DNA of 36,907 bases from the IMG/VR virus record IMGVR_UViG_3300025451_000030, positions 1-36,907 of that record. One strand, given 5' to 3'. Below, in pieces: positions 2,643-17,309 of the stretch (position 1 is its first letter; each line of letters begins with the position of its first letter). Made by a program: the position numbers and the translations under genes. The notes beneath the pieces are model-generated. The model did no database searches. It saw only the letters and a list, made by a program, of their open reading frames with translations, and had not been told where the DNA came from. The DNA comes from a virus. Its lineage: Duplodnaviria > Caudoviricetes.

Positions 2643-3082
2643 ACCACACAGAACTGATTGCGCGGTTGTCCGCCATGTGGGCACAGCTCGACCCTGTGGA
2701 CGAGTGGCGGCCAGTTATCCGCGATGCAATCGACGCGCTGACCCCGCCCGCTGCAGGGGTGCCGGTTGAGCGAATGCTCAGGCCTTTGGTTTGGGCACGG
2801 AAGGACCAACTGCAACATGCCAGCACGCGAGGCGGACTGATGTGCGCCATGTACCCGAACACCGACCGGCGCGCAGACCTGCAGCCGCTGTATGACCAAG
2901 CTGCGCTAGGCGCCGCGCTGAACCTGTGGCCGCGCGACTGCCGTTTGTGCGCGAACTTCACGACGCAGGCAGGAGGGTGCGTGTCCGTGGTTCAGTGCGT
3001 GGACAGCATGCAATTCACGGCGACCACGCCGCGCCAGTATTGGGCGTCGGCGCCTAACGGCCAGGCCCAACGGCTGCCGTAG
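2639..3082 (+). CDS. Hypothetical protein, apparently chimeric (internal attC remnant; ends inside attC1)
   Basis: PVERMLRP is encoded by the attC-arm remnant; CxxC...CxxxxxC in the C-terminal part. Confidence 0.6.
   Translation: MNHTELIARLSAMWAQLDPVDEWRPVIRDAIDALTPPAAGVPVERMLRPLVWARKDQLQHASTRGGLMCAMYPNTDRRADLQPLYDQAALGAALNLWPRDCRLCANFTTQAGGCVSVVQCVDSMQFTATTPRQYWASAPNGQAQRLP
2762..2783 (-). repeat. Degenerate half attC remnant inside ORF 2639-3082
   Basis: CCGGTTGAGCGAATGCTCAGGC matches the family-A right arm CCGGTTGAGCGAATGGTTAGGC at 20/22 positions; no left arm found. Confidence 0.65.
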
Positions 3083-3108
3083 GCAGTCCGTTGCAGCCGT
3101 TGTTGGGC
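3052..3108 (-). repeat. attC-like site 1 (57 bp)
   Basis: GCCTAAC...CAACGGCTGCC-GTA-GGCAGTCCGTTG...GTTGGGC hairpin. Confidence 0.8.
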
Positions 3109-3132
3109 GTTGGTTGCTGACGCTGAACTTTA

Positions 3133-3184
3133 CATTGTGGGCAGTACGAAAACACTAGACAAAGCGCATTTGTGGCAGTACATT
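3133..3184 (+). promoter_or_regulatory. Sigma70-like promoter with direct-repeat operator, copy 1
   Basis: TAGACA(3156-3161)-17 bp-TACATT(3179-3184); CATT(n4)GCAGTAC repeated at 3133 and 3167; AT-rich island. Confidence 0.7.
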
Positions 3185-3227
3185 AATACCACTGCAGCAA
3201 GACGCCGCAGCAACCCAGGAGAGCAAC

Positions 3228-3503
3228 ATGACCGCTACCAAGATCCAAATCGGCATCGACACCAGCATTGACACCACCGAAGACGGCTACGACGGCGGCG
3301 ACGCGGTGATGATCGAATCGCACAACGGCACCGTTTGCATCACTGGCCCGTTTGAGGGCTGGATGGGCTACCAAACGCTGGCTGACCTGCCGATTGAGCA
3401 GGCCGATGAAGCCGACGCCCTGGCCCGCAAGATTGCGGCCGACCCCGTTGCCGAACTCACGGCGCTGGGCTATGACTTGGCCGGCTGGTTCAAGCCGCTG
3501 TGA
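3228..3503 (+). CDS. Cassette gene, acidic hypothetical protein
   Basis: AGGAGA RBS; GTGA overlap with the RHH gene. Confidence 0.75.
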   Translation: MTATKIQIGIDTSIDTTEDGYDGGDAVMIESHNGTVCITGPFEGWMGYQTLADLPIEQADEADALARKIAADPVAELTALGYDLAGWFKPL

Positions 3504-3682
3504 ACCAAGCTCCGGGAAAGGCCAAGCCGGGGCGCAAGCCCCTGGCCGATGGCGATGGCAAGACCGCCCGTGTGCAACTGAAGCTGACGCCGGCCGCGAA
3601 AGCCGATTGGCTGGCGAAAGCCGCCGCTGCCGGTTTGACGCTGCAAGCCTGGGTGGAGTTGCGGTGCAGCGGGAAGCGGTGA
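3500..3682 (+). CDS. Ribbon-helix-helix-like DNA-binding protein, copy 1
   Basis: GRKP basic arm, RVQLKLT strand and two helices (AAAAGLTLQAWV); 56/60 identical to 9267-9449. Confidence 0.7.
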   Translation: MNQAPGKAKPGRKPLADGDGKTARVQLKLTPAAKADWLAKAAAAGLTLQAWVELRCSGKR

Positions 3683-3683
3683 C

Positions 3684-3784
3684 GCCCAACGTTGCCAATG
3701 AGGCGGGGCAAACGGCGCTGCCGCTGCCGGCTACACCCACAACCAGACCCGCCGTTTGACCTCGCCTCGATTGGCGGGTTAGGC
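3684..3784 (-). repeat. attC-like site 2 (101 bp, family B)
   Basis: GCCCAACGTTGCCAATGAGGCG...CGCCTCGATTGGCGGGTTAGGC; near copy at 7891-7989. Confidence 0.85.
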
Positions 3785-3807
3785 CCTGGTGAACGTAGAG
3801 GGAACAA

Positions 3808-4140
3808 ATGAACCGCATGGAGCAACTGCTGGCGTTCTGCGATTGGGAGCGGAAGCACAACCCGCACCCGGAAGGCAAGCCGCATGTGGCGGAGTGGGCT
3901 GCTGCTGAGATTGAACGGCTGAACGGAGAAGTTGCGCTGTTGCGCGCCACGATGGAAGGCGCCACCTACCAACTGAGCAAGGCGCGCATTTGGGGCGGCA
4001 TGGAGTGGCATTACAACCCGTTGCACCCAATGCACTACAGGCCGGCGCTTGATCGTCTGCGCGAAGTGCTGGACGGGCCTAACGCTGTAGCTCACCGGAC
4101 CCTGGAGGCGGAACGCCGCAAGGGGTCCGGTGCAGCGTAG
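3808..4140 (+). CDS. Cassette gene, hypothetical (AAAEIERL coiled-coil motif); reads through most of attC3
   Basis: GAGGG RBS; stop lies inside attC3. Confidence 0.7.
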   Translation: MNRMEQLLAFCDWERKHNPHPEGKPHVAEWAAAEIERLNGEVALLRATMEGATYQLSKARIWGGMEWHYNPLHPMHYRPALDRLREVLDGPNAVAHRTLEAERRKGSGAA

Positions 4141-4148
4141 TGTTAGCG
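4077..4148 (-). repeat. attC-like site 3 (72 bp)
   Basis: GCCTAACGCTGTAGCTCACCGGACCC...GGGGTCCGGTGCAGCGTAGTGTTAGCG. Confidence 0.8.
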
Positions 4149-4307
4149 GGCCGGTGGCTTAGCGCGCAGCAGCACCGCACGCGCCCACTCTAGGCCATGC
4201 TCATCGATCTTTGCCCACACCGCTGGAGGCATGCGGATAGACCGCTGCACCAGGCGCTTGGCTTCCGGGATGGGTGGGCGCCCGCCCTTGTTCTTTGGCT
4301 GTTCCAT
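4143..4307 (-). CDS. Small RHH/antitoxin-like regulator, probably leaderless
   Basis: MEQPKNKGGRPP...VQRSIRMPPAVWAKI; TATACT 6 nt upstream of the ATG; stop TAA lies in the attC3 core. Confidence 0.65.
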   Translation of the reverse strand: MEQPKNKGGRPPIPEAKRLVQRSIRMPPAVWAKIDEHGLEWARAVLLRAKPPAR

Positions 4308-4313
4308 GCGGGC

Positions 4314-4365
4314 AGTATACGTGATGCACAAACCGCTTGCGCTTGCTTTGTTTGTGTGATTCAAT
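4314..4365. promoter_or_regulatory. Divergent promoter region
   Basis: Minus strand: -10 TATACT (4314-4319). Plus strand: TTGCGC-17 bp-TTCAAT with extended TG. Confidence 0.45.
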
Positions 4366-4399
4366 AACACCCATCGACACACCAACCGGAGCAAGCAAC

Positions 4400-4603
4400 A
4401 TGCAAACCACCCACCTGCAAAACATTGGCAAAGTAGCCGCGAAGCCCGCCGAACAGATCAAGGCCGGCGACGTGCTGGTTTGGAACTTCGGCAGCACCAG
4501 CGAAGTGCTGGCTGTTGAGCGCACCGCCAAGACTGTTGTGGTGAAGCTGTCGGGCGGCTACAGCCGTCGCTTTGGCGCCTCCCGCCTGGTGGCGGTGCAA
4601 TGA
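4400..4603 (+). CDS. Cassette gene, small beta-rich (SH3-like) protein
   Basis: GGAG RBS; KPAEQIKAGDVLVWNFG. Confidence 0.7.
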   Translation: MQTTHLQNIGKVAAKPAEQIKAGDVLVWNFGSTSEVLAVERTAKTVVVKLSGGYSRRFGASRLVAVQ

Positions 4604-4818
4604 AGGCGCACCTGGTGAAGATTCAGCGGGTAGCGACCGCTGCCCGCGAATACGACGCGGTGACGGTGTATGTAGGTGATCTGCGCCTGCGCTGCGATGC
4701 TATTGACGACCGAACGATCAGGCTGGCACGAAGGCTGGCAGAGGATTGCGGTGCGACGTTCATGTACGACGAACACAACGCCGAGCGAGTGCGGGCGGCT
4801 TGCGCGATTGCCGGCTAA
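4600..4818 (+). CDS. Cassette gene, hypothetical
   Basis: ATGA overlap; stop TAA is in the attC4 core. Confidence 0.65.
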   Translation: MKAHLVKIQRVATAAREYDAVTVYVGDLRLRCDAIDDRTIRLARRLAEDCGATFMYDEHNAERVRAACAIAG

Positions 4819-4886
4819 CGTTGGAGCTAAGGCGCCGACGTAGGGCCGCAGGCCCGTAGGAGGTCGCCTTGAGCGACCAGTTAGGC
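4813..4886 (-). repeat. attC-like site 4 (74 bp)
   Basis: GGCTAACGTTGGAGCTAAGGCG...CGCCTTGAGCGACCAGTTAGGC. Confidence 0.85.
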
Positions 4887-4906
4887 ATCAACGTGGAGAA
4901 ACAAGC

Positions 4907-5233
4907 ATGGAAGAGTGGGAAGAAGTCGATATACCGACACACCGGCTGAAAGATGCGAAGTGGGTTGCCACCGTGGCCGAGATTCGCAACAACGCCACGG
5001 GCGTGGTTCGCGAGTACCAGGACAACTCCATCATGGAAGACGGCGCGCCCGAGCCGAGCTCTTTCATGTGGGAAGACGGCAACTACGCCTGCGACTGCAA
5101 CCGCAAACTGTTTTTTGCTAGAGCGGCTGGCGAGGATGAGGATTGGGAAAGCGAATGCAGCGATGGCCTCTACTCCGTTCGCGTGCGGAACAAGAAAAGT
5201 GGCCGCGTGTTCTACAGCGAATTTGATGCCTAA
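4907..5233 (+). CDS. Cassette gene, hypothetical (WEDGNYACDCNR motif)
   Basis: GGAG RBS; stop TAA is in the attC5 core. Confidence 0.8.
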   Translation: MEEWEEVDIPTHRLKDAKWVATVAEIRNNATGVVREYQDNSIMEDGAPEPSSFMWEDGNYACDCNRKLFFARAAGEDEDWESECSDGLYSVRVRNKKSGRVFYSEFDA

Positions 5234-5296
5234 CGTGGCCGGTAACCGGCCTGGCCCGGCTTGCCGGGACAGGTCCGGTTGACCCGCCAGTTAGCC
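5228..5296 (-). repeat. attC-like site 5 (69 bp, family E)
   Basis: GCCTAACGTGGCCGGTAACCGG...CCGGTTGACCCGCCAGTTAGCC; unpaired G and T fall on the plus strand. Confidence 0.85.
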
Positions 5297-5339
5297 GGCA
5301 CTGGTGAAACGCCGGCACCTGCCTGAAAGGGCTGATACC

Positions 5340-5702
5340 TTGAACCAAGAGCAGATTGCCCGAGTGGCACACGAAGTGAACCGCGCCTATTGCCAGGCGC
5401 TGGGCGACCACAGCCAGCCAGCATGGGAAGACGCGCCGCAGTGGCAGCGCGACAGCGCCATGCTGGGCGTGAAGCTGCACACCGAAAACCCCGGCGCCAG
5501 CCCTTCCGCCAGCCATGAAAGCTGGATGGCGCAGAAGGTGGCCGAAGGCTGGGTCTACGGCCCCGAGAAGAAGCCAGAGCTGAAGCAGCACCACTGCATC
5601 GTGCCGTTTGACGCGCTGCCGGTGGCGCAGCAGGCGAAGGACTACATATTTCGCGGCGTGGTGCATGCCCTGGCGCACGCGCCGGCCACAGTTGCCGCAT
5701 AG
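5340..5702 (+). CDS. Cassette gene, RyR-domain phage protein
   Basis: IARVAHEVNRAYC...HESWMAQKVAEGWVYGPEK...HHCIVPFDALP...KD fits the RyR repeat signature; TTG start after GAAAGGG (GTG 5304 is an alternative). Confidence 0.8.
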   Translation: MNQEQIARVAHEVNRAYCQALGDHSQPAWEDAPQWQRDSAMLGVKLHTENPGASPSASHESWMAQKVAEGWVYGPEKKPELKQHHCIVPFDALPVAQQAKDYIFRGVVHALAHAPATVAA

Positions 5703-5737
5703 GTGCGCAGATGCCGGGCATGCAGGTATTGGTGTCC

Positions 5738-5837
5738 GGCTAACGTTCGAGCTAAGCAGGAGACAACGGCGTGACCATGCTGGACGAAGCCACAGAAGCG
5801 AGCGCCGTTGGCTCTCTGCTTGAGCGAGGAGTTATGC
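5738..5837 (-). repeat. attC-like site 6 (100 bp, family C); contains the RBS and GTG start of the downstream gene
   Basis: GGCTAACGTTCGAGCTAAGCAGGAGACAACGGC-GTG...GCCGTTGGCTCTCTGCTTGAGCGAGGAGTTATGC. Confidence 0.85.
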
Positions 5838-6631
5838 GCCCGGTGGAGTGCTTACGGACCGTGGCGGCCCTCTATGTTGAGCCGAAGGGCTGCTATGTGG
5901 GCGTGCCGGGTGTTGATGCTTGGGACGAAGCCCGCGATGCCCGCACCTACAACGGCCCGCACCCGGTGGTAGCGCACCCGCCCTGCCAGCGATGGGGCAG
6001 GTTCTGGCACGGCAGCACACGCAAACCGCATCAGTACAAGCTGGGCGACGATGGCGGGTGTTTTGCTGCTGCCCTGGCCGCGCTGCGCCTGAATGGCGGC
6101 GCGCTTGAGCACCCGATGGACTCGCATGCGTGGAAGTATTTCAGGCTGAAGAAGCCGCCGCGCAAAGGTGGGTGGGTTGAGGCCGCGCCAGGCTTGTGGA
6201 CATGCTGCGTGTACCAGGGCCACTACGGGCACCTTGCCGGCAAAGGAACATGGCTGCTTGTGGCTGGCGTGCCAAAGCGCCTGCTTCCCGAACTGCGCTG
6301 GGGCAAGACACCGCAGCGGCTGCACCCTCGCGCCGTGGAGTTGCACGGCTACGAGAAAGCGCGGCGCATTGGAATGATGGCGATGGTGGGCGGCAATGAC
6401 AAAACTGCGATTCGCAACGGCACGCCGCCTGAGTTCCGAGACTTGCTGATTGAGATTGCGCGCAGCGCAGTGAACCCGGTGGAGCAAGGTGCCGCCGCGC
6501 TGGCCCTGTTGAAGCGCATCCGCTACCACGCGCAGCGGCACGCGCTGCCGCGAGACTGGCTGACGGCAGCAGACGAGGTTTTAGGCACTTGGCATGCGGT
6601 GAAACTCACCCATTCCGAGATAGGCGCATAA
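5771..6631 (+). CDS. Cassette gene, DNA cytosine methyltransferase-like phage protein
   Basis: VVAHPPCQRW (motif IV PC-like) and LEHP (motif VI ENV-like); first ~22 codons lie in attC6; stop is in the attC7 core. Confidence 0.6.
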   Translation: MTMLDEATEASAVGSLLERGVMRPVECLRTVAALYVEPKGCYVGVPGVDAWDEARDARTYNGPHPVVAHPPCQRWGRFWHGSTRKPHQYKLGDDGGCFAAALAALRLNGGALEHPMDSHAWKYFRLKKPPRKGGWVEAAPGLWTCCVYQGHYGHLAGKGTWLLVAGVPKRLLPELRWGKTPQRLHPRAVELHGYEKARRIGMMAMVGGNDKTAIRNGTPPEFRDLLIEIARSAVNPVEQGAAALALLKRIRYHAQRHALPRDWLTAADEVLGTWHAVKLTHSEIGA

Positions 6632-6725
6632 CGCCAGGTTAAGCGGGAGACAACAGCCGTGACCAAGTATGAAGACGCGCAAGTGGTGGCCGCTGTTGGC
6701 TCTCCGCTTGAACCGACAGTTAGCC
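6626..6725 (-). repeat. attC-like site 7 (100 bp, family C); contains the RBS and GTG start of the downstream gene
   Basis: GCATAACGCCAGGTTAAGCGGGAGACAACAGCC-GTG...GCTGTTGGCTCTCCGCTTGAACCGACAGTTAGCC. Confidence 0.85.
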
Positions 6726-7489
6726 GTCATGCCGCGCCGCGCGTGATAGCGCAGTTTTCCTGCGGCGCTGCCTCGGCGGTGGCTACCAAGATGGCGCTGG
6801 CCCAGTACAAGGGCGCAGAGGTGGTGATTGCCAATGCGTTTTTGGTGGAAGAGGATGAAGACAACCGCCGCTTCTTGGCCGACTGCGAAGACTGGTTCGG
6901 TCAGCGCGCCCTGCAACTGCGGGATGAGAAGTACGGGGCCAGCGCCGACGAGGTGTGGCGGCGCAAGCGGTTCATGAAGGGGCGCAAGGGTGCGCCGTGC
7001 TCTGGCGAACTGAAGCGCAAGGTGCTGGACAAGGTGAAACGCCCCGACGATGTGCTGATATTTGGCTTCACCGCCGAAGAAGCAGACCGCTTCGATGACT
7101 TCCAAGAGCGCAACCCGCAACTGAAAGCCACTGCGCCGCTGGTGGAGAACGGGATTGGGAAGGCCGACTGTCTTGCGATGGTGCAGCGGGCCAGCATCAA
7201 GCTGCCGCTAGCCTACCGCCAGGGCTACAGCAACGCGAACTGCACCGGCTGCCCCAAGGGCGGCGAGGGCTACTGGAACCACGTTCGCAAGGTTCACCCG
7301 CTGGTGTTCCGTGCGCGCCTGGAGCGGCAGGAATCCATCGGCCCAGGCGCGTACTTCTTCCGCGACCGCGACACCGAAGAACGCTTCGGGTTGAAGGACT
7401 TGGACCCGAAGGCGGGCCGCCACGATGAACCGATGCCAGCGTGCAGTTTCTTCTGCGAGCTGGGCGAACAAGAGTACGCCGCCTCATGA
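6659..7489 (+). CDS. Cassette gene, PAPS-reductase-like (adenine nucleotide alpha-hydrolase) protein with Cys cluster
   Basis: FSCGAASAVA PP-loop variant, GAPC, NANCTGCPKGGEGYW, terminal CSFFC; first ~22 codons lie in attC7. Confidence 0.7.
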   Translation: MTKYEDAQVVAAVGSPLEPTVSRHAAPRVIAQFSCGAASAVATKMALAQYKGAEVVIANAFLVEEDEDNRRFLADCEDWFGQRALQLRDEKYGASADEVWRRKRFMKGRKGAPCSGELKRKVLDKVKRPDDVLIFGFTAEEADRFDDFQERNPQLKATAPLVENGIGKADCLAMVQRASIKLPLAYRQGYSNANCTGCPKGGEGYWNHVRKVHPLVFRARLERQESIGPGAYFFRDRDTEERFGLKDLDPKAGRHDEPMPACSFFCELGEQEYAAS

Positions 7490-7490
7490 C

Positions 7491-7590
7491 GGCTAACGTT
7501 TGAGCTAACCGGAAAACCCGGCAGCTACAGAAGATGATAGGCGCCACGGTGCCGCCTGCCGGGGTTTTCCGGTTGAGCGAATGGTTAGGC
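7491..7590 (-). repeat. attC-like site 8 (100 bp, family A)
   Basis: GGCTAACGTTTGAGCTAACCGGAAAACCCGGCAGC...GCCTGCCGGGGTTTTCCGGTTGAGCGAATGGTTAGGC. Confidence 0.9.
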
Positions 7591-7618
7591 CACGCATTGG
7601 TGGCAAGTGAGGAACGAC

Positions 7619-7882
7619 ATGAGAAGCACACTGTTGGCTGCAACCGCGTTGTCGGTGATGGCTGGTATGGGAGCGATTTCGCAGTCAATGCCTGCACCGC
7701 GCAAGGACAGCAACCGCGACTACAGGGACGCAGACATTGAGCGCGCCTTCGCTCGAAACGAGCGCCCGGCACCAGGCCCCGAAGAAGTGAAGCGTGCGGC
7801 GGTGCGCGCCGAGATTGCAGCGCACAACGCCGAAGTCGAGCGCCGCAAGGCCGAGAAGCGCGCTCGCAGGCTGACCCGCTGA
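7619..7882 (+). CDS. Cassette gene, hypothetical (hydrophobic N-terminus, basic coiled-coil C-terminus)
   Basis: GAGGA RBS; fills the cassette. Confidence 0.65.
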   Translation: MRSTLLAATALSVMAGMGAISQSMPAPRKDSNRDYRDADIERAFARNERPAPGPEEVKRAAVRAEIAAHNAEVERRKAEKRARRLTR

Positions 7883-7890
7883 ATTGCGGG

Positions 7891-7989
7891 GCCTAACGTT
7901 GCCGATGAGGCGGGGCAAACGGCCGCGCCGTGATGGCAGATGAACAAACCGCCCCGCCGTTTGACCTCGCCTCGATTGGCGGGTTAGGC
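7891..7989 (-). repeat. attC-like site 9 (99 bp, family B)
   Basis: Arms nearly identical to site 2, different loop. Confidence 0.85.
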
Positions 7990-8016
7990 GTGGCGAACGA
8001 AGCGAAAGGACATGGA

Positions 8017-8226
8017 ATGACTGAATGGACCAAGCCGGAATACAGGGTTGTGCGCGACAACTACAACGGCTATGAGGTGCAGATTCGGCGCTGGTGGCAT
8101 TGGCCGTTTTGGTGGCAAGCGGCTGGGAGCAACACCCACTCAAGCGTGGAAGCCGCAGAGACGTTTGCGGAGGGGCACGCACGCGCACGCGGCCCCGTGA
8201 AGCATCTCGGGAGGCTGGGCGCCTAA
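8017..8226 (+). CDS. Cassette gene, Trp-rich hypothetical (alternative in-frame start inside attC9 at 7930/7933)
   Basis: AAAGGA RBS; stop is in the attC10 core. Confidence 0.7.
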   Translation: MTEWTKPEYRVVRDNYNGYEVQIRRWWHWPFWWQAAGSNTHSSVEAAETFAEGHARARGPVKHLGRLGA

Positions 8227-8320
8227 CGTTTGAGCTAACCGGAAAACCCGGCAGCTACAGAAGATGGAAGGCACCACGGTGCCGCCTGCCGGGGTTTTCC
8301 GGTTGAGCGAATGGTTAGGC
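8221..8320 (-). repeat. attC-like site 10 (100 bp, family A)
   Basis: Minus strand reads R'' GCCTAAC, 5-bp CATTC, L'' GCTCAACC ... L' GGTTAGC, 6-bp TCAAAC, R' GTTAGGC, the canonical attC layout. Confidence 0.9.
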
Positions 8321-8342
8321 CTGGTGGCCGAAGGGGAAGACG

Positions 8343-8516
8343 ATGGAATTTGCTATGGGGATTTTGATTGGGTTTCTGCTGATGATGCTCTTGATTGGCA
8401 TTGCCGTCTGGGGAATGCACATGGGCCTTGAACTTGCTGTGGACGGCACAAAGAAGAAAGGCCACTTCTGCGCCTATGGCAAAAAGTGGAAAGTTGTTGA
8501 GACACCCGAGGCCTAG
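8343..8516 (+). CDS. Cassette gene, 57-aa membrane protein (not in ORF track)
   Basis: MEFAMGILIGFLLMMLLIGIAVWGMH...ETPEA*; GAAGGGGAAG RBS; lower GC. Confidence 0.7.
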   Translation: MEFAMGILIGFLLMMLLIGIAVWGMHMGLELAVDGTKKKGHFCAYGKKWKVVETPEA

Positions 8517-8518
8517 GG

Positions 8519-8618
8519 GCCTAACGTTTGAGCTAACCGGAAAACCCGGCAGCTACCGAATATGCAAGGCGCCACGGTGCCGCCTGCCGGGGTTTTCCGG
8601 TTGAGCGAATGGTTAGGC
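8519..8618 (-). repeat. attC-like site 11 (100 bp, family A)
   Basis: Arms identical to site 10, loop variant. Confidence 0.9.
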
Positions 8619-8641
8619 CTGGCGGCCGAAGGGGAAGAACG

Positions 8642-8830
8642 ATGACAAGCTGGATTCTGGTACTCACGATTTTGACCAGCGGCCACGGCGCAGCACTGAC
8701 AAACGTGCCCGGCTTCACGGCGCAGCAAGACTGCGCGGCAGCAGCAGCCGAGTGGCTCCGCGCAATGAACGCCCAGCCCGGAGGCTTCCGCTACTACAGC
8801 GCAATCTGTCTGCCGCAGAAGAGGGCCTAA
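8642..8830 (+). CDS. Cassette gene, small secreted/membrane protein with Cys pair
   Basis: MTSWILVLTIL...GFTAQQDCAAAA...AICLP; stop is in the attC12 core. Confidence 0.7.
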   Translation: MTSWILVLTILTSGHGAALTNVPGFTAQQDCAAAAAEWLRAMNAQPGGFRYYSAICLPQKRA

Positions 8831-8893
8831 CGTTGCCGGTAACCGGATTGACCCGGCTTGCCGGGGCAATTCCGGTTGAGCGGCGTGTTGGGC
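8825..8893 (-). repeat. attC-like site 12 (69 bp, family E)
   Basis: GCCTAACGTTGCCGGTAACCGG...CCCGGCTTGCCGGG...CCGGTTGAGCGGCGTGTTGGGC; same loop as site 5. Confidence 0.85.
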
Positions 8894-8918
8894 GTTGTTG
8901 CCGGAGCGCGTGTCTTTA

Positions 8919-8970
8919 CATTGGTGGCAGTACGAAAACACTAGACAAGGCGCATTGTTGGCAGTACATT
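8919..8970 (+). promoter_or_regulatory. Sigma70-like promoter with direct-repeat operator, copy 2
   Basis: TAGACA(8942-8947)-17 bp-TACATT(8965-8970); same GGCAGTAC repeats as 3133-3184. Confidence 0.7.
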
Positions 8971-9015
8971 AACACCACTGCAGCAAGTCGCCGCAGCAAC
9001 CCACAGGAGAGCAAC

Positions 9016-9270
9016 ATGACAGAAGTTCAAGCCCTGCAAGCCGAAGCCACCCGCCAAGATGCGATTGCTCAGGCCCTGCGCGCCGATGTGCAAACCGCAG
9101 AAGCTGCCGCCGCCGCGATCACGGACCAAGATTCGACCGAAGCAGGCATTGCCTGGGCGCGTGCGGGCGGATTGCGCCACGCAATGGACGAAGCCATCGA
9201 AGCCATGCGCAAGGCTCACCGCGATGCAGCTGACATCGAAGACCCGGACGGCCTGCGGGCGGAAGCATGA
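9016..9270 (+). CDS. Cassette gene, Ala-rich helical hypothetical
   Basis: AGGAGA RBS; ATGA overlap with the RHH gene. Confidence 0.7.
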   Translation: MTEVQALQAEATRQDAIAQALRADVQTAEAAAAAITDQDSTEAGIAWARAGGLRHAMDEAIEAMRKAHRDAADIEDPDGLRAEA

Positions 9271-9449
9271 ACCAAGCCCCGGAGAAAGCCAAGCCGGGGC
9301 GCAAGCCCCTGGCCGATGGCGAGGGCAAGACGGCCCGCGTGCAACTGAAGCTCACGCCGGCCGACAAAGCCGATTGGCTGGCAAAGGCAGCCGCTGCCGG
9401 TTTGACGCTGCAGGCGTGGGTAGAGAAGCGGTGCAGCGGTAAGCGATGA
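9267..9449 (+). CDS. Ribbon-helix-helix-like DNA-binding protein, copy 2
   Basis: Paralog of 3500-3682. Confidence 0.7.
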   Translation: MNQAPEKAKPGRKPLADGEGKTARVQLKLTPADKADWLAKAAAAGLTLQAWVEKRCSGKR

Positions 9450-9450
9450 C

Positions 9451-9469
9451 GCCCAACTAGTCGATATGC
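9451..9469 (-). other. attI-like simple site (lone core plus degenerate L box) terminating array 1
   Basis: Minus strand GCATATC-GACTA-GTTGGGC = 7-bp degenerate L box, 5-bp spacer, GTTRRRY, with no attC hairpin. Same geometry as the attI1 simple site. Confidence 0.55.
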
Positions 9470-9849
9470 CAACTTTCCAAACTCCGAACCGATGGCGCCG
9501 CTACAACGCCACACCAGGCGCACACCAGCGCCGGCAGCGTGCGCGGGAAGCCGCCAGCATTGCAGGCCCCGCGCCGGCCTACCCGCCGACCGCCCCACTG
9601 CATGGCGACTGGCTGGGCGGCTGCATCAACGGACAGACCGTGATCGTGCGGCTGATGCGCGATCCGTCGCACAGGTCAGACCAATGGGCCGCCGAGATCG
9701 ACGGCGGAACGGTGGCCGATGCTGCTGGCTTGACGCGGCTGTGGGCGCTGCTGCATCCGCGCTGGGGCAAGGCGCCGAGCAAGCGGGCATTGGCGACGAT
9801 GCAAGAACGCTGGACCGACCGAGACGAACACGACGCCGCAATGGCGTGA
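9466..9849 (+). CDS. Hypothetical phage protein; its start overlaps the attI-like site
   Basis: ORF fills the gap to the next RBS; no clear RBS of its own. Confidence 0.5.
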   Translation: MPTFQTPNRWRRYNATPGAHQRRQRAREAASIAGPAPAYPPTAPLHGDWLGGCINGQTVIVRLMRDPSHRSDQWAAEIDGGTVADAAGLTRLWALLHPRWGKAPSKRALATMQERWTDRDEHDAAMA

Positions 9850-9856
9850 GGACACC

Positions 9857-10444
9857 ATGAGCAACACTGACGAACTTTGCGCCGCTGCACAACAGGCCCT
9901 GGTGGCAATGGAGAAGTACCCGGTCACGGTGAATCACTGGAAAGCGGTGCTGCTGCCTGCCGCTGATGCACTGCGCGCCGCCCTGGCGCAGCAGCCCGCC
10001 GCCCCTGACCGCTGGAATGAGGGGTTCAAGCACGGCCAGTGGCTGGCGAAGCACTCCGCCCCTGTTGTGGAGCGCGCAGACTCTGCAACGCCTGTTGTGG
10101 AGCGTAGCGCCGGGAATGTGAGCGACAACGCCGCCCCTGTGGCGCCTGCCCGCTGGTACTGCGTGACCAACTACGGAGGCGCCACGCTGTGCACTGGCCG
10201 CGACGATGCCGCCGAGGTGGCGGCCGAGCAGGACATCGCCATTCCGCGCCATGGGCCGCACCGGGCCGTGATGCTGGCAGAAGTGCCGCCTGCGCGAGTG
10301 CCGCTGACCGAGGCGGAGATTGCGTCAATGCAGCGCAAAGCAAACACAACCGGCGTTCAGTTTTTACAGTCGTCAACCGTGCGATGGATCGTTCGCGCCA
10401 TCGAAGCCGCCCACGGCATCACGGCGCAAGGAGAACTGAAGTGA
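9857..10444 (+). CDS. Mosaic hypothetical phage protein (ALRAALAQ... PLTEAEI... RAIEAAHGI motifs)
   Basis: GAGGA RBS; motifs typical of betaproteobacterial phage early-region proteins; internal PVVER duplication. Confidence 0.7.
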   Translation: MSNTDELCAAAQQALVAMEKYPVTVNHWKAVLLPAADALRAALAQQPAAPDRWNEGFKHGQWLAKHSAPVVERADSATPVVERSAGNVSDNAAPVAPARWYCVTNYGGATLCTGRDDAAEVAAEQDIAIPRHGPHRAVMLAEVPPARVPLTEAEIASMQRKANTTGVQFLQSSTVRWIVRAIEAAHGITAQGELK

Positions 10445-10728
10445 CCGACGCACTGCACATTGCTGACGGCTACTCAGCCCGCCCCTACGGTGACGGCTAC
10501 ATCATCCACCACGAAAGCGGAGGCGCCTGGGCGGCTGATCTGGCGATGGTTGCCGCCGTGCTGGAGATTGCCCGCCTGCGCGCAGCCGACGACGCCCACC
10601 GTGCCGCATTTGCAGCGATCTACACCGCGCTGCAACCGGCTGACCCCGACCGCGCCACATGGCCGGCTGAGATTGCCCGCCTGCGCGCCATGCTGGCCGC
10701 CGTCATTGTTGGGAACCGGACATCATGA
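10441..10728 (+). CDS. Hypothetical phage protein with duplicated EIARLRA
   Basis: AGGAG RBS, GTGA overlap. Confidence 0.6.
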   Translation: MTDALHIADGYSARPYGDGYIIHHESGGAWAADLAMVAAVLEIARLRAADDAHRAAFAAIYTALQPADPDRATWPAEIARLRAMLAAVIVGNRTS

Positions 10729-10865
10729 GCACCCTGCTGGAGGTTCTGGGCCTGGTGCTGCTGATCCTGCTGGTGGTCGCCCTGTGGTTCGTGTTCCGAG
10801 GCGACCCGAGCCTGATCGATCTGTGGCACCGGGCCGCGATGCAGGCCGCTGGAGGTGTGCGGTGA
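10725..10865 (+). CDS. 46-aa membrane protein (not in ORF track)
   Basis: MSTLLEVLGLVLLILLVVALWFVF...; ATGA and GTGA overlaps. Confidence 0.6.
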   Translation: MSTLLEVLGLVLLILLVVALWFVFRGDPSLIDLWHRAAMQAAGGVR

Positions 10866-11089
10866 AGGTCAGGATGATCAAGCGGCGCCACGACCGGCGC
10901 ACCACCTTCAAGGCGCTGCTGTGGGCCGGCATGAACGACGAAATGCGCTGGCACACGCTGGAGTACGACGGCGATGACCCATGGGACGACGACATGCCCG
11001 GCGACGCATGCCTGCACTGCCACGGCGACGGCATGGACCCGGACTGCGACTACCTGTTGCAGTGCCCGGACTGCGGCGGGAGTTGGTGA
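10862..11089 (+). CDS. Small protein with DnaJ-like CxxCxGxG zinc finger
   Basis: CLHCHGDG...CPDCGG; GGAGG RBS. Confidence 0.6.
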   Translation: MKVRMIKRRHDRRTTFKALLWAGMNDEMRWHTLEYDGDDPWDDDMPGDACLHCHGDGMDPDCDYLLQCPDCGGSW

Positions 11090-11307
11090 TGGCGGCAGTA
11101 ACGCTGCATTTCCGAGCCGACCGCCTGCACAAGACCTGCGGCGTGTGCGGGGCGGATCTGAACCGGCGCGTCAGCCGCTGGTGGCTGACGAACTGCTGGA
11201 CGGCCGACCCGAAGGAATACCGCGCGCAGCAGAGCTGCCACCCGGCAGAGACTGTGCGGCCCTGCGGAGTACTGGACCGCAGCAAGACGCCCAACCGACG
11301 GAGATAA
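11089..11307 (+). CDS. Small Cys-rich protein; ends inside attC13
   Basis: TGATG coupling; CGVCG. Confidence 0.55.
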   Translation: MAAVTLHFRADRLHKTCGVCGADLNRRVSRWWLTNCWTADPKEYRAQQSCHPAETVRPCGVLDRSKTPNRRR

Positions 11308-11359
11308 GCCGCCGGCCGCCGGCCGCCTGCGGGCGGTCGGCTTGATCGACCTGTTCGGC
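11289..11359 (-). repeat. attC-like site 13 (71 bp)
   Basis: GCCCAACCGACGGAGATAAGCCG...CGGCTTGATCGACCTGTTCGGC. Confidence 0.75.
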
Positions 11360-11386
11360 CTCTGGCGCCGAAGCGAAAGGACTGTG

Positions 11387-11578
11387 ATGAGCCTGAACTA
11401 CCGAGAGACTGACGACGAGTGCCCCGGTTGCGGAGCGACTGCCCGCGGCAGGCGAGACAACAAGCCGAACTCTCCGCAGGGGTTGAGCGAGTGCCCGCAA
11501 TGCGGCGCAGAGAAATGCTGCATGTGTGACATGGGCGATGACGTGGAATGCGCCTCGTGCGACCTAGGCGACGAGTAG
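11387..11578 (+). CDS. Cassette gene, Cys-rich zinc-finger protein
   Basis: CPGC, CPQC, CCMC, CASC; AAAGGA RBS. Confidence 0.7.
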   Translation: MSLNYRETDDECPGCGATARGRRDNKPNSPQGLSECPQCGAEKCCMCDMGDDVECASCDLGDE

Positions 11579-11579
11579 G

Positions 11580-11631
11580 GCCTAACGTCATGCTAGCCGG
11601 CGCGTAGCGTCCGGCTGAGCTGGGGTTGGGC
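11580..11631 (-). repeat. attC-like site 14 (52 bp, very short)
   Basis: GCCTAACGTCATGCTAGCCGGCGC-GTA-GCGTCCGGCTGAGCTGGGGTTGGGC. Confidence 0.75.
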
Positions 11632-11656
11632 GGCTGTGCGACGAAGCGAAGGACGA

Positions 11657-11881
11657 ATGATGAGCATGGACTACATCCGCCGCACCTACGGTGTGCCGGC
11701 CAAACGCGGGATGACCGTCACCATCTGCGGCGACGGAACGCGCTTCCAGGCGCGCATCGTCGGGTCTCGCGGGCAGTACCTGCGGCTATGGATTCCAGGC
11801 GGCAAGCGCTCGCACCTGTACCACCCGACCGATTCGCTGGAGTACCCGGCCGCAGCAAAGGGCAAGACGCCCAACGGCTGA
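11657..11881 (+). CDS. Cassette gene, small phage protein (YIRRTYGVPAKRG...YHPT family)
   Basis: AAGGA RBS; ends PNG* inside attC15. Confidence 0.75.
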   Translation: MMSMDYIRRTYGVPAKRGMTVTICGDGTRFQARIVGSRGQYLRLWIPGGKRSHLYHPTDSLEYPAAAKGKTPNG

Positions 11882-11935
11882 ACTCACCGGACGGCCCGGC
11901 CTGCCGGGCAGGTCCGGTGCAGTGACGTGTTGGGC
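11869..11935 (-). repeat. attC-like site 15 (67 bp, family D arms)
   Basis: GCCCAACGGCTGAACTCACCGG...CCGGTGCAGTGACGTGTTGGGC. Confidence 0.85.
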
Positions 11936-11964
11936 GGCTGGTTGATTGACGAACAGGAACAAGC

Positions 11965-12207
11965 ATGCTGAAACCTGAACACCTAGACGGCGCACTGCGG
12001 CAAGAACAGATGCAGGAGCGGGCGGATTGGAGAGCCGCCAACGAACCCGGCAGCGCGTCAGCTTCTCCATGGGAGCGCGGGCGCCTGGATGCGCTTGCCG
12101 GCAAAGCGGCGCCCGACCTTGTGCGCCCGGACGGCGCGTGGTCGGCACGGCTGTACGCGGCGGGGTGGGATCGCGGGGCGGAGCGGCGCAAGACGACCAA
12201 CGTTTGA
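11965..12207 (+). CDS. Cassette gene, hypothetical (WERGRLDA...AAGWDRG, Rmf/CrpP-like pattern)
   Basis: AGGA RBS; ends TNV* inside attC16. Confidence 0.6.
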   Translation: MLKPEHLDGALRQEQMQERADWRAANEPGSASASPWERGRLDALAGKAAPDLVRPDGAWSARLYAAGWDRGAERRKTTNV

Positions 12208-12293
12208 GCTAACCGGACCGGCCAGGCGCCGGGATGGTGACAGATGAACAGGACGGACCGCCTGGCTGGGTCCGGTTGAGCGAATGGTTAGGC
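12195..12293 (-). repeat. attC-like site 16 (99 bp; family-A outer arms, family-D inner stem)
   Basis: GACCAACGTTTGAGCTAACCGGACCGGCCAGGCG...CGCCTGGCTGGGTCCGGTTGAGCGAATGGTTAGGC. Confidence 0.88.
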
Positions 12294-12550
12294 CCGGCTC
12301 AGAAGCGCGCCAAGAATTGACCGCTGCCCTGGACAAAAGCGGCAGTGTGGTGCTGATAGACGTGGATGGCGAAATCCTGTTTTACGCGGCAGACGGCAAG
12401 ATGAAGGTGCAGCGGCTGGGCCAGGAGTGCGAGGGTTGCATTGCTGCGAATATGAAGCTGGCCGATGCTGTGGCGCAGGCATGGAACGCGAAACTCAAGC
12501 GCGCCGCTGACCCAACGAACAGCCGCCCGCGCTGTGGTCTTGGGGCCTAA
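12284..12550 (+). CDS. Cassette gene, hypothetical; ATG lies in the attC16 arm
   Basis: Fills the cassette; stop is in the attC17 core; start uncertain. Confidence 0.55.
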   Translation: MVRPGSEARQELTAALDKSGSVVLIDVDGEILFYAADGKMKVQRLGQECEGCIAANMKLADAVAQAWNAKLKRAADPTNSRPRCGLGA

Positions 12551-12645
12551 CGCTTGAAGTGAGGCGCCTTTGACGGCGCGAAGAAAGGACGACGATGAAC
12601 CAACATGACACGCCGGCAAAGGTCGCCTCGACTGATGGGTTAGGC
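12545..12645 (-). repeat. attC-like site 17 (101 bp); RBS and ATG of the downstream gene lie in its loop
   Basis: GCCTAACGCTTGAAGTGAGGCGCCTTTGACGGCG...AAAGGACGACGATG...CGCCGGCAAAGGTCGCCTCGACTGATGGGTTAGGC. Confidence 0.85.
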
Positions 12646-12963
12646 CCGCTGGTTGCTGACGCGCTGACAGCCGCAGACGAATACGCGGAAGCAGCCGGCC
12701 ACGCCGAGTGCTGGACGGGCACGCGCGCCAGCTACAACCAGCACCTAGCCGATGCGCGCACCAAGGCGCGCCAGGCCATTGATGCGGCCGTGGCCGCAGA
12801 GCGCGGGCGGTGGGAAGCCTTGCTTGAAGATCGCGCCCAGATTCATGGCGAGTCGTCGCGCATCTATGCGCGCCTAGCGAGCGCTGTGCGCGCCGGGGCC
12901 GGTGACATTGTTTTGGGGCAACTGCTTCGCGCCGAGGTGCAGGGAAGAGGGCCTAACGGCTGA
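12595..12963 (+). CDS. Cassette gene, hypothetical; starts in the attC17 loop and ends in attC18
   Basis: AAAGGA RBS plus ATG inside the hairpin loop. Confidence 0.7.
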   Translation: MNQHDTPAKVASTDGLGPLVADALTAADEYAEAAGHAECWTGTRASYNQHLADARTKARQAIDAAVAAERGRWEALLEDRAQIHGESSRIYARLASAVRAGAGDIVLGQLLRAEVQGRGPNG

Positions 12964-13048
12964 ACTCACCGGACCGGCCAGGCGCCGGGGTGGTGACAAA
13001 CGCGGACCCGCCCCGCCTGGCTGGGTCCGGTGCAGTGATGGGTTAGGC
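12951..13048 (-). repeat. attC-like site 18 (98 bp, family D)
   Basis: GCCTAACGGCTGAACTCACCGGACCGGCCAGGCG...CGCCTGGCTGGGTCCGGTGCAGTGATGGGTTAGGC. Confidence 0.88.
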
Positions 13049-13071
13049 CTGGTGGCCGAAGGGGAAGAACG

Positions 13072-13263
13072 ATGGACATGCGACAGACGCTGCCGGAACT
13101 GTGGCGCAGTCACGATGGCTTGTGGTGGATTGGGCAGGCCGTGGCGTTGATGCTGGCCCTGTCGCTTCTGTTCAACGGCTACGGCGGCCCCGTTGCTGCG
13201 GCTGTTGGCTACGCGCTGGCAGTGCTGGTTGACATCCGCGAGGCGGTGTCGAAGCGGGCCTAA
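13072..13263 (+). CDS. Cassette gene, 2-TM membrane protein
   Basis: Two hydrophobic segments; stop is in the attC19 core. Confidence 0.7.
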   Translation: MDMRQTLPELWRSHDGLWWIGQAVALMLALSLLFNGYGGPVAAAVGYALAVLVDIREAVSKRA

Positions 13264-13321
13264 CGGCTGAACTCACCGGACCGGCCGGCCTGCCGGCTGG
13301 GTCCGGTGCAGTGGGTTAGGC
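13258..13321 (-). repeat. attC-like site 19 (64 bp, family D; 3-bp spacer deletion)
   Basis: Right arm CCGGTGCAGTGGGTTAGGC versus CCGGTGCAGTGATGGGTTAGGC in site 18. Confidence 0.8.
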
Positions 13322-13344
13322 GTGGTGAACGAAGGGGAAGAACG

Positions 13345-13548
13345 ATGCAATGCAAGAACTGCGGCAAGGCCGCCGACCAGCACAACGCCAAAACTCGGGC
13401 ATGCCCCGGCGGCCGGAAGCACCGGACGCACGGTTACCCGTGGTTCCACCAGACGCAGGTTTTTGAAGCGCACAAGCAGTGCCCCAACAAGCGTGGCGGT
13501 GTGTGCGGCAAGGCTGGCCCGTGCTTGAGCCCAGCATGTGGTGGCTGA
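13345..13548 (+). CDS. Cassette gene, Cys/His-rich small protein
   Basis: CKNCG..H..CP..; GAAGGGGAAG RBS. Confidence 0.65.
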   Translation: MQCKNCGKAADQHNAKTRACPGGRKHRTHGYPWFHQTQVFEAHKQCPNKRGGVCGKAGPCLSPACGG

Positions 13549-13549
13549 C

Positions 13550-13648
13550 GCCTAACGTTTGAGCTAACCGGAAAACCCGGCAGCTACCGAATTGAGAAGC
13601 GCTGCGGCGCGGCCTGCCGGGGTTTTCCGGTTGAGCGAATGGTTAGGG
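13550..13648 (-). repeat. attC-like site 20 (99 bp, family A)
   Basis: Arms as in sites 8/10/11; ends GTTAGGG. Confidence 0.88.
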
Positions 13649-13667
13649 CTGTTGTTGGAGAAACGTG

Positions 13668-13766
13668 ATGAACAAGCGCTTCGTGCGCTGGGCCGGCCTC
13701 AAACACCCGGCCACGCTGGGCGGCGATGTCGTCGAGCGCTGGCTAGGGCCCCGATCTATTGCCTGA
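13668..13766 (+). CDS. 32-aa ORF in the last, possibly truncated cassette
   Basis: GGAG RBS; MNKRFVRWAGLKHP...SIA*. Confidence 0.35.
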   Translation: MNKRFVRWAGLKHPATLGGDVVERWLGPRSIA

Positions 13767-13797
13767 CAACACCTTGCAGCGGCACCACCCTGCCCGC

Positions 13798-14070
13798 TCA
13801 TTCAGGCTCGGCCTGCAGCCCTGCTGGCACGCCGTGCCGCCACCTGGCTGCAGACAGGGTCAACCACACCAGCACCGCAAGCACCAGCACCGTCTTGCCA
13901 GCCATCGCCGGCAGCACCAGGCTGAAGCTGAGCCCCGCGAACATCACCAGGTGCTGCATGCGCACTGGCGCCGGCGTGGCCCGCGTCATCTTGGCAGCGC
14001 GGCAAATGATGGAGAACATGGCCATGATGGTGGCCACAGCCTGGGTGATCAACAACAGGTCAGCATTCAT
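13798..14070 (-). CDS. Membrane protein, putative holin-associated
   Basis: 3 hydrophobic segments; ATGA overlap with the upstream holin-like gene. Confidence 0.65.
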   Translation of the reverse strand: MNADLLLITQAVATIMAMFSIICRAAKMTRATPAPVRMQHLVMFAGLSFSLVLPAMAGKTVLVLAVLVWLTLSAARWRHGVPAGLQAEPE

Positions 14071-14480
14071 TGATCAACCCCAAGGCGACAGGTGATGAAT
14101 TTCTTGGCCAGGCCGCCGGCCCAGGCTGCAACGCCCGGCCAGTCGTGCCCGATGTACGCAATGCCGCCACTGATGGGCACCAGCAGGTAGCGCGGGTCGA
14201 TCTGCAGGCCGGCCTGGTCGAATGCGTCCGAGGCAAGCGCAGCCAGCGCACCGGTGAGCAGCACCGACAGCATGGTCAGCAGCAAGATGAAGCCAAGCGC
14301 CTGCATGCGGGTGCTGCCCTCTCGGCGCATCTCGGCGCCGACGGCGCCCACTAGGGCCGATGCGATGATCACCGCATAGGGGCCGGCGTAGCGTGCCACC
14401 TCGTCACCAGCCAGCGCACCAATGGCGACAACTGCAACGGTCACCACGTCGAGCTGGATCTGTTCTGCTGGTGGCGTCAT
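14067..14480 (-). CDS. Putative holin
   Basis: 3-4 TM segments (YAVIIASALVGA...); end of the late operon. Confidence 0.6.
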   Translation of the reverse strand: MTPPAEQIQLDVVTVAVVAIGALAGDEVARYAGPYAVIIASALVGAVGAEMRREGSTRMQALGFILLLTMLSVLLTGALAALASDAFDQAGLQIDPRYLLVPISGGIAYIGHDWPGVAAWAGGLAKKFITCRLGVDQ

Positions 14481-15105: not shown

Positions 15106-15177
15106 GCTTGCTCCTTAAACTTGGGCCGTCATCTTGAGGGTGGACTTGAAATGTCGCCTGCCGGGCAACAATGGCGC

Positions 15178-15882
15178 ATGAAAGCTATCAACCTGCCCGG
15201 AGTCCTTGTCGCCGCCATCATGACCGCTTGCGGTGGTGGTGGTGGTGGAGACCTGCAAAACACGCAGGCTGCGGCTTGCGTCCCAAAAATGCCGGTGCGG
15301 CTGTTGATGTTTGGGGATTCGACGTTCAGCGGCACCGGAGCATCCCAGGATTTGAACGGAAACCTGACATACGCTCCAGCGCCAATCATCCAGCGTGCAA
15401 TGGACCTGCAGTTCGGAGCTGGCGCTGTGCAGGTGCTCAATTACTCGGTGATGGGCAGCTCCAGCGCTGATTTGGTGGCGGGTATCGATGGCGTCAATGC
15501 ACCGTGGCCCACGCCGGCGTTGGGTGGAGACATCGCCATCATCAACCATGGGATCAACGACCAGTTGCGCCAAACGCCCATTGCGGCATACCGGGCGAAC
15601 CTTGCGGCCTTTACCGCAGTAGGCATTCCCGTGGTGCTGCAGACGCCAAACCCCACGTTTCGCGGCTGGGAAAGCGTCGCCCACATTCAGGCTGTGCGGG
15701 ACACCGCGGCAGCTGCTGGCCGCACGCTGGCCGACGTGCACGGGTACATGAGTGGTCTCGCCAACGCTGCGCAATACTTCCCCGACGGAGTGCACCCGAA
15801 CGACGCCGGGTATCAGCTGATCGTCAACAACGTGACGCTGCCGGCCTTGGTGCCCCTGGTCGCTAAGCTGCGCTGCCAGTGA
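15178..15882 (+). CDS. SGNH/GDSL hydrolase lipoprotein (antisense moron)
   Basis: Lipobox MTA-C followed by poly-G; blocks FGDS, G, GIND and DGVHP. Confidence 0.88.
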   Translation: MKAINLPGVLVAAIMTACGGGGGGDLQNTQAAACVPKMPVRLLMFGDSTFSGTGASQDLNGNLTYAPAPIIQRAMDLQFGAGAVQVLNYSVMGSSSADLVAGIDGVNAPWPTPALGGDIAIINHGINDQLRQTPIAAYRANLAAFTAVGIPVVLQTPNPTFRGWESVAHIQAVRDTAAAAGRTLADVHGYMSGLANAAQYFPDGVHPNDAGYQLIVNNVTLPALVPLVAKLRCQ

Positions 15883-15884
15883 AT

Positions 15885-17306: not shown

Positions 17307-17309
17307 ACA

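Follow-up and report, generated by a model that had tools for sequence, protein, structure and literature searches.

Unrelated genes behind shared leaders in an inverted attC array of a tailed phage: probable re-assortment of attC, leader and reading frame

The creation of integron cassettes de novo has been described as largely unknown (PMC5371416), and a virus record of the Caudoviricetes (Duplodnaviria; IMGVR_UViG_3300025451_000030, positions 1 to 36,907) bears on this question. This whole 36.9-kb stretch, referred to here as the window, has an estimated completeness of 50% and carries an array of 20 attC sites (3052..13648; minus strand, with the genes on the plus strand) in two blocks (3052-9457 and about 11089-13770), as judged from attC geometry and phage context. 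Several of its genes are preceded by closely similar short leaders, each with a ribosome-binding site (RBS) and a start codon. A preliminary description of the array, the attC numbering of which is kept here, took these leaders to be a clue to cassette genesis and proposed that open reading frames (ORFs) are swapped precisely, from start to stop, into pre-made frames of attC and RBS. The question is whether the leaders record such a process or recombination between cassettes that already existed. The analysis described below indicates that exchange between existing cassettes explains the data, whereas the creation of new cassettes is not demonstrated by them.

The sequence motifs that drew attention to the leaders are all present where they had been reported, with mean counts of 0 to 0.02 in 50 shuffles. 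Among the leaders, GGCCGAAGGGGAAGA occurs at 8326, 8624 and 13054, GAAGGGGAAGAACGATG at 8628, 13058 and 13331, and CGAAGCGAA(A)GGA at 7998, 11369 and 11642; among the cassette 3' ends, AAGACG(C/A)CCAAC occurs at 11284, 11864 and 12190, AAG(A/C)GGGCCTAAC at 8819, 12945 and 13252, and TGACG(C/G)C(C/T)AAC at 3680, 7487, 9447 and 13546. The ORFs behind the shared leaders had been called unrelated, and this was borne out: among seven ORFs from the window and five from other contigs, the best phmmer --max E value was 0.034 for the 12-sequence set. A search of metagenomes with a 33-nt leader, which had been suggested as a check, gave 15 loci, of which five were the window or a near-copy, four carried window ORFs, five carried new unrelated ORFs and one was cut; the search pattern contained the ATG, so that these loci are uninformative on breakpoints. 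Leaders of 33 nt ending at the ATG stand before at least eight unrelated ORFs. In viral contigs there was no match to the exact window leader (0 matches), and no relative of ORF 8642 was confirmed.

Leader sharing is not confined to the window: in many phages unrelated ORFs have common leaders, far more often than chance would give. In loci that had not been selected by their leaders (L009-L085, the only source of the sharing frequencies, since leader-based scans select for leaders), the 16 nt behind the R box agree at 15 or more positions with those of a cassette holding an unrelated ORF in 35 of 164 RBS-led viral cassettes; over all loci the figure is 104 of 351, and among bacterial cassettes it is 0 of 178, the bacterial set having no RBS filter and the viral set being RBS-filtered. 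Before counting, two loci identical to the window (L246 and L247), three from a near-identical relative (L242, L243 and L251) and the R388 control (L086) were left out. The largest leader cluster comprises 21 cassettes with 18 ORF families, the window leader family has six for six, and near-identity over 30-45 nt was seen in several distinct leader families. The sharing of leaders among unrelated genes is therefore real and phage-specific in this sample. No promoter was recognized by eye in the 30-nt leaders. A second leader family (GTTAGCC...; window 5290-5340 and L415, L418, L421, L442, L080 and L322) also heads several unrelated ORFs and has an apparent internal hairpin, the arms of which seem to covary.

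The preliminary description had placed the canonical top strand of the attC sites on the plus strand, but it lies on the minus strand. The canonical geometry, tested as R''(7)-5-L''(8 with extra base)-loop-L'(7)-6-R'(7), was found on the minus strand in 18 of the 20 sites, the two exceptions (attC1 and attC19) having odd spacers; the plus strand gave one weak match (score 19), and 20 shuffles gave zero sites scoring 23 or more. In all three sites that were folded the plus strand was the more stable (z of -3.8 to -5.7, with an extrahelical base), which is the asymmetry of the bottom strand of the R388 dfrB2 attC, and the R388 control came out as same-sense in the orientation test. The window units (n = 17) were classified as nine inverted, none same, three both and five unclassified; with one attC-arm pattern applied to both the viral and the bacterial collections, the corresponding counts were 75, 7, 21 and 86 for viral units (n = 189) and 12, 64, 2 and 88 for bacterial units (n = 166). 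Counted per locus, inverted against same, the numbers were 32 and 2 of 49 viral loci and 5 and 25 of 43 bacterial loci. Two loci from bacterial genomes (L107 and L088) contain inverted cassettes with phage-type leaders in bacterial bins and are possibly prophages or mis-binned phage contigs.

The canonical layout, with the ORF in the sense of the attC and the attC behind the gene, is not the one seen in the window. Having 20 co-oriented sites and no intI nearby in a record that is 50% complete, the array is a cluster of attC sites lacking integron integrases (CALIN); likewise, no tyrosine recombinase (PF00589) was matched in the window of this half-complete record, and the array had no match in Rfam or, by blastn, among plasmids and annotated phages. 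An intI and an attI-like stretch beside the array, as in a complete integron, are found not in the window but in seven other viral contigs (L008, at 156-2560, L302, L392, L287, L061, L269 and L032), where intI, directed as the cassette genes are, comes just after the YYYAAC of the last inverted cassette and the attI-like stretch; this evidence does not depend on hairpin geometry. Both of the two integrases tested against TIGR02249 passed (428 and 450 bits; cut-off 265), and in L008 the intI/attI-like region is followed by a small DUF4224 gene and a phage integrase. Given the minus-strand attC sites and the intI/attI-like site at the matching end in these contigs, one cassette therefore consists of an attC, its leader and the ORF that follows. 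Moreover, cassettes common to different contigs break sharply after AAC, and a contig from run X9 joins 8229 to 12554, keeping attC17 with its downstream ORF. The sharp breaks, together with intI beside such arrays, are indirect signs of recombination by IntI. The inversion, these breaks and this joint therefore establish the order attC, leader, ORF, tail. The attC sites run opposite to the genes, and the cassette border lies after the gene at YYYAAC, between the last A and the C. The leader, which had been taken for the 5' end of a canonical cassette, is instead the stretch adjoining the R'' box of its own attC. This order also accounts for three ORFs that start within attC loops and for a bare GCCCAAC at 9451-9457.

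The pre-made frames of attC and RBS did not withstand comparison across loci, since a leader is not inherited with one attC: the attC sites ahead of one shared leader are 0.60 identical against a background of 0.52, and 2% of 209 pairs reach 0.9. Among near-identical cassette pairs, attC identity of at least 0.9 was kept in 4 of 30, the identity peaking beside R'' and decaying outwards. The leader and ORF 8642 of the window were found behind other attC sites in two loci (L239 and L241), and two others (L237 and L248) contain attC16/attC18 hybrids with the intervening cassettes deleted. ORFs also change leaders: ORF 13345 of the window and its counterpart in L038 are 97% identical over 204 nt behind different leaders with few shared bases before the ATG, and the ORFs of L022 and L026 are 0.94 identical whereas their leaders are 0.50 identical. 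There is no fixed attC and RBS frame; the leader is independent of attC type, and one ORF may be found with different leaders. Most window cassettes (2600-14200) recur as separate pieces in wastewater and freshwater metagenomes (runs X2, X5, X9 and X11), which is consistent with a shared, actively reshuffled pool.

In pre-made frames, the recurring cassette 3' ends would form a shared block starting from the stop codon. This view has to be given up, because tails are common for only ∼4 nt past R, barely better than in pairs sharing just the first 10 nt, and reflect complementarity of the cassette ends as in bacteria. Past the R box this complementarity amounts to 2.66 nt in viral cassettes (0.59 when shuffled) and 3.55 nt in bacterial cassettes (0.73); ends matching at 7/7 positions were found in 81% of 397 viral units versus 34% for in-array pairs. 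In the tail analysis 152 of 394 units were linked into a single family by the homology clustering, the family counts of which are therefore minima. The stop codon (n = 162) is the TAA of the R box in 77 cases and lies just before the R box in 40, and for many ORFs the cassette end supplies the final codons together with the stop. Each recurring 3' motif is complementary to the 5' end of the same cassette and includes a stop codon. A long frame in which leader and tail are inherited together was also considered and was ruled out, as tail sharing stops ∼4 nt past R.

The leader similarity falls to background about 5 nt past the ATG, and over the 10 nt before the ATG the identity is just 0.35-0.58 against a background of 0.30-0.43. 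Where it stops was also examined with alignments of each cassette to the best unrelated partner (n = 98; L237-L251 omitted, other loci gathered by leader-based scans retained). The end lies between the ATG and 8 nt past it in 32 of these alignments, 1-6 nt ahead of the ATG in 25, still more upstream in 32 and more downstream in nine. The statement that the similarity ends at or just after the ATG thus describes a third of the cases, and the other 66 ends form graded breakpoints. The mix recurs in natural populations, where 11 of the 17 downstream loose ends listed for attC11 and its leader branch at 8616-8621, the end of R''; other branch points lie at 8628, 8631, 8639 and 8644, the last of which leads to the window's own other ORF. 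Behind the leader at 11353, other ORFs directly follow its ATG (11389) in runs X5 and X9.

On balance, the shared leaders are probably a by-product of short-homology recombination that re-assorts attC body, leader and ORF between existing cassettes of an inverted array. IntI, coming from the host or from related temperate phages, would move whole cassettes. The joins at RBS/ATG microhomology and inside the attC arms may be made by a recombinase of phage or host origin or by template switching, with further crossovers on short homology within the leaders. Selection would be likely to keep joins in the zone between RBS and ATG, where a translatable gene and complementary ends are retained, and a leader that had become common would supply 25-33 nt of homology and might spread further.

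Several observations weigh against short-homology recombination as the source of the leaders. All members of the window's own leader family end exactly at the ATG (five of them were picked with an ATG-containing pattern), and the 32 of 98 ends at the ATG would also be expected from a dedicated mechanism, the ends upstream of it possibly reflecting later drift of the RBS spacer rather than join points. CGAAG is enriched beside R'' (46 of 189 viral units, against 18 in mid-cassette and 5 of 166 bacterial units). No recombinase for exchange at the level of the ATG was found among 57 ORFs scanned in the 50% complete record. Finally, the units were de-duplicated by sequence and not by lineage, and about half have no assignable orientation.

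An unlikely alternative is that top-strand cleavage by IntI at R'' is frequent enough in phage DNA to free leader and ORF from the attC, which would make the gene unit between two R boxes the mobile piece. It would fit both the branching of the attC11 loose ends at the end of R'' and the occurrence of the same leader and ORF with different, self-consistent attC sites on both sides (window, L239 and L241; L003 versus L085). However, identity to the own attC exceeds background over the 16 nt adjoining R'' and decays gradually, as with crossovers inside the arm, and bottom strands are reported to recombine ∼1000-fold better (PMC8946536). Furthermore, top-strand cutting would explain the turnover of attC sites but not the sharing of leaders.

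The preliminary proposal itself, a dedicated cassette-making process that puts ORFs, start to stop, into ready-made attC and RBS frames, is now rather improbable. Its evidence includes the 33-nt leaders ending at the ATG before unrelated ORFs and the other ORFs found directly after ATG 11389 in two runs, and its cleanest support comes from outside the region first described, in two promoter cassettes. In promoter cassette 1 (3102..3690, plus strand) a promoter-like leader is followed by ORF1 (3228-3503) and an ORF2 (3500-3682) coding for a NikA-like ribbon-helix-helix protein, the match being below the Pfam cut-off; promoter cassette 2 (8887..9457, plus strand) has the same leader and ORF2, with 87% identity over 134 nt and 89% over 190 nt, respectively, and an unrelated ORF1 (9016-9270) has been cleanly substituted between the ATG and the overlapping stop/start of the second gene. 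TAGACA-17-TACATT can be read in the sequence of the 130-nt leader, both at 3102 and at 8887, and six further loci (L063, L069, L028, L073, L240 and L279) have a similar leader with other first ORFs. In the window copies GGCAGTAC occurs twice in the promoter/RBS region and is a possible operator. A precise start-to-stop replacement of the ORF therefore agrees with these two cassettes, but not with the 66 of 98 ends off the ATG or with stops that often come from the cassette end. A dedicated process is further weakened by the uncoupling of attC from leader, by the same ORF having different leaders and by tails that are common only over ∼4 nt past R with stops often taken from the R box.

Convergence, in which leaders became alike without transfer through selection on the RBS, on end complementarity and on a functional CGAAG motif, is very unlikely. 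The enrichment of CGAAG and a purine-rich background identity of 0.38-0.43 at -10 to -8 would suit it, but it is largely refuted for the long leaders by near-identity over 30-45 nt in several distinct families and by the absence of sharing in 178 bacterial cassettes; for the 5-nt motif it may still apply. Pairing of CGAAG with R'' was considered separately and ruled out, as motif and R'' sequence do not vary together. A common origin of the ORFs behind one leader, with divergence past recognition, is hardly credible: short ORFs do limit the power of detection, but there is no phmmer or blastn signal among the 12 ORFs, their compositions differ (hydrophobic, Cys-rich, basic) and noncoding leaders would not have remained 97-100% identical meanwhile.

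Whether resident phage genes are also captured de novo was considered with the RyR-domain gene at 5340-5702, for which 80 viral homolog loci were retrieved. In a tree of 70 rows, four clear cassette forms fall in one ten-row clade (support 88/96) together with copies that keep leader remnants, and the remaining rows are resident genes by the end-complement rule. The cassette label rests on this rule (4 of 70 rows) and on inspection of ten loci; an automatic attC test found one full cassette among the 80 loci and missed some. With midpoint rooting the label takes three changes, and 38 of 500 shuffles were equally low. One capture followed by decay would fit this midpoint-rooted tree. In addition, the cassette ORF of L254 matches a non-cassette copy in L082 at 78% identity from its ATG on, a hint of what may be a second footprint of capture. 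It is plausible that resident phage genes are captured de novo. More tentatively, inverted phage arrays could act as cassette factories: because attC and leader precede the gene, a single short-homology crossover at the RBS/ATG could graft the attC and leader module onto a resident gene, and a downstream YYYAAC would complete an IntI-mobile cassette. Such a route would need no RNA intermediate.

The array lies between the early and late genes of the phage, its 20 hairpins extending from 3052 to 13648, and PHROG matches on the minus strand of the window comprise a terminase, a portal, an HK97-type head and a long-tail module. All attC sites are on the minus strand; the leaders, the tails and the ORFs behind the leaders are on the plus strand. 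The first block begins with attC1 (3052..3108), the nonstandard spacers of which place it outside the strict geometry. Upstream of it, a remnant of a type-A attC arm (2762-2791) lies within ORF 2639-3082 and suggests fusion of a decayed cassette with a phage gene. Behind promoter cassette 1 follow attC2 (3684..3784), attC3 (4077..4148), attC4 (4813..4886) and attC5 (5228..5296), all identified by geometry. The cassette at 4142-4819 has a short reverse-strand ORF and two plus-strand ORFs, probably in a divergent arrangement, and its first 270 nt recur in L079, L042 and L387. The loops of attC6 (5738..5837) and attC7 (6626..6725) hold RBS-like stretches with the starts GTG 5771, in frame with an ORF to 6631, and GTG 6659, in frame with a PAPS-reductase-like ORF to 7489; attC17 (12545..12645) likewise has an RBS and ATG 12595 of ORF 12595-12963 in its loop, so that in these cassettes the attC codes for the first 15-22 residues. 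The type-A site attC8 (7491..7590) and attC9 (7891..7989), both identified by geometry, lead to the cassettes with shared leaders.

Behind attC9, a leader of the CGAAGCGAAAGGA type runs from the R'' box to the ATG (7983..8019) of a 69-residue ORF (8017..8226; phrog_8363, unknown function). The type-A attC10 (8221..8320; geometry and folding) and attC11 (8519..8618; geometry) are each followed by a leader of the CGAAGGGGAAG type, at 8314..8345 before an ORF of 57 residues without a family (8343..8516) and at 8612..8644 before an ORF of 62 residues (8642..8830). The tail AAGAGGGCCTAAC of the latter (8819..8831) consists of the last codons and stop of the ORF plus the R' box of attC12 (8825..8893; geometry). 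Promoter cassette 2 ends the block with the bare GCCCAAC (9451..9457, plus strand), which has no attC behind it and, to judge from the cassette layouts, may be the insertion point, either attI-like or a secondary site. Ordinary small phage genes (9466 to ∼11090) separate the two blocks.

In the second block a tail AAGACGCCCAAC (11284..11295) adjoins attC13 (11289..11359; geometry), behind which a CGAAGCGAAAGGA-type leader (11353..11389) heads a Cys-rich ORF of 63 residues (11387..11578; phrog_5584). After attC14 (11580..11631; geometry), a CGAAGCGAAGGA-type leader (11625..11659) precedes an ORF of 74 residues that runs through the R' box (11657..11881) and contains a second AAGACGCCCAAC tail (11864..11875), followed by attC15 (11869..11935; geometry and folding). 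The tail AAGACGACCAAC (12190..12201) leads into attC16 (12195..12293; geometry), and another AAGAGGGCCTAAC tail (12945..12957) into attC18 (12951..13048; geometry and folding), the CGAAGGGGAAG-type leader of which (13042..13074) stands before a hydrophobic ORF of 63 residues without a family (13072..13263) with the tail AAGCGGGCCTAAC (13252..13264). In attC19 (13258..13321) one spacer is 3 nt short, and two runs have three extra bases behind 13311; its variant leader (13315..13347) precedes an ORF of 67 residues weakly matching phrog_10623 (13345..13548), and the type-A attC20 (13550..13648; geometry) is the last site. Beyond the array, a low-GC stretch after the tail-fibre gene (15115-17900) and a low-GC plus-strand ORF among the head genes (28947-29696) have no PHROG match and are possible morons.

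The array resembles the CALINs described in phage genomes (Qi et al., 2023; PMC9892861), which are likewise attC clusters without intI in phages and carry methyltransferase-type cargo. That study reports that phage attC sites are substrates of IntI1 and that complete integrons also occur in phages. However, the arrays there, called typical, have few sites, whereas the present one has 20 with genes antisense to attC, and the main text of PMC9892861 mentions neither gene inversion relative to attC nor leader families. Classical integron cassettes (PMC8946536; PMC5371416; the R388 control) share the R''-L''-L'-R' geometry, the extrahelical base, the better-folding bottom strand and the complementary cassette ends, and related viral contigs have intI beside attI as well. 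They differ in that the window ORFs are on the opposite strand, so that the attC precedes the gene and can supply its start, in that leaders are shared (35 of 164 versus 0 of 178) and in that no ORF homology was found between 351 viral and 178 bacterial cassettes. The PeSL mobile regulatory cassettes of T4-type phages (Arbiol et al., 2010; PMC2839356) are also repeated intergenic regulatory blocks among small accessory genes, between which recombination shuffles modules; a PeSL, however, is described as a promoter with a terminator stem-loop, whereas the repeat in the window is a translation leader next to an attC, on a cassette that is presumably mobile through an integrase. In phage mosaicism through boundary sequences or illegitimate recombination (PMC3029335), junctions similarly cluster at gene boundaries because functional joins survive; the boundaries in the window differ in being coupled to site-specific recombination sites, so that a join would yield an IntI-mobile unit. 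Neither inverted phage cassettes nor shared leaders were found in the literature searched, in which subscription journals are thinly covered; the literature considered includes 10.1101/2024.07.02.601686, 10.1101/2025.06.18.660453, PMC2761259 and PMC11511950.

The array is part of a distinct pool of phage cassettes whose layout is reversed and in which the re-assortment of attC, leader and ORF is visible. It does not reveal how canonical bacterial cassettes originate, no cargo being common to both pools in the sample. For phage genomes, the reversed layout means that cassette borders are mis-drawn if genes are presumed to run with attC. Since the junctions can be mapped to the base, they provide defined substrates and predicted junctions with which a recombination route to new cassettes can be tested, and the reshuffling, if true, offers a testable way in which phage genes may be turned into new cassettes.

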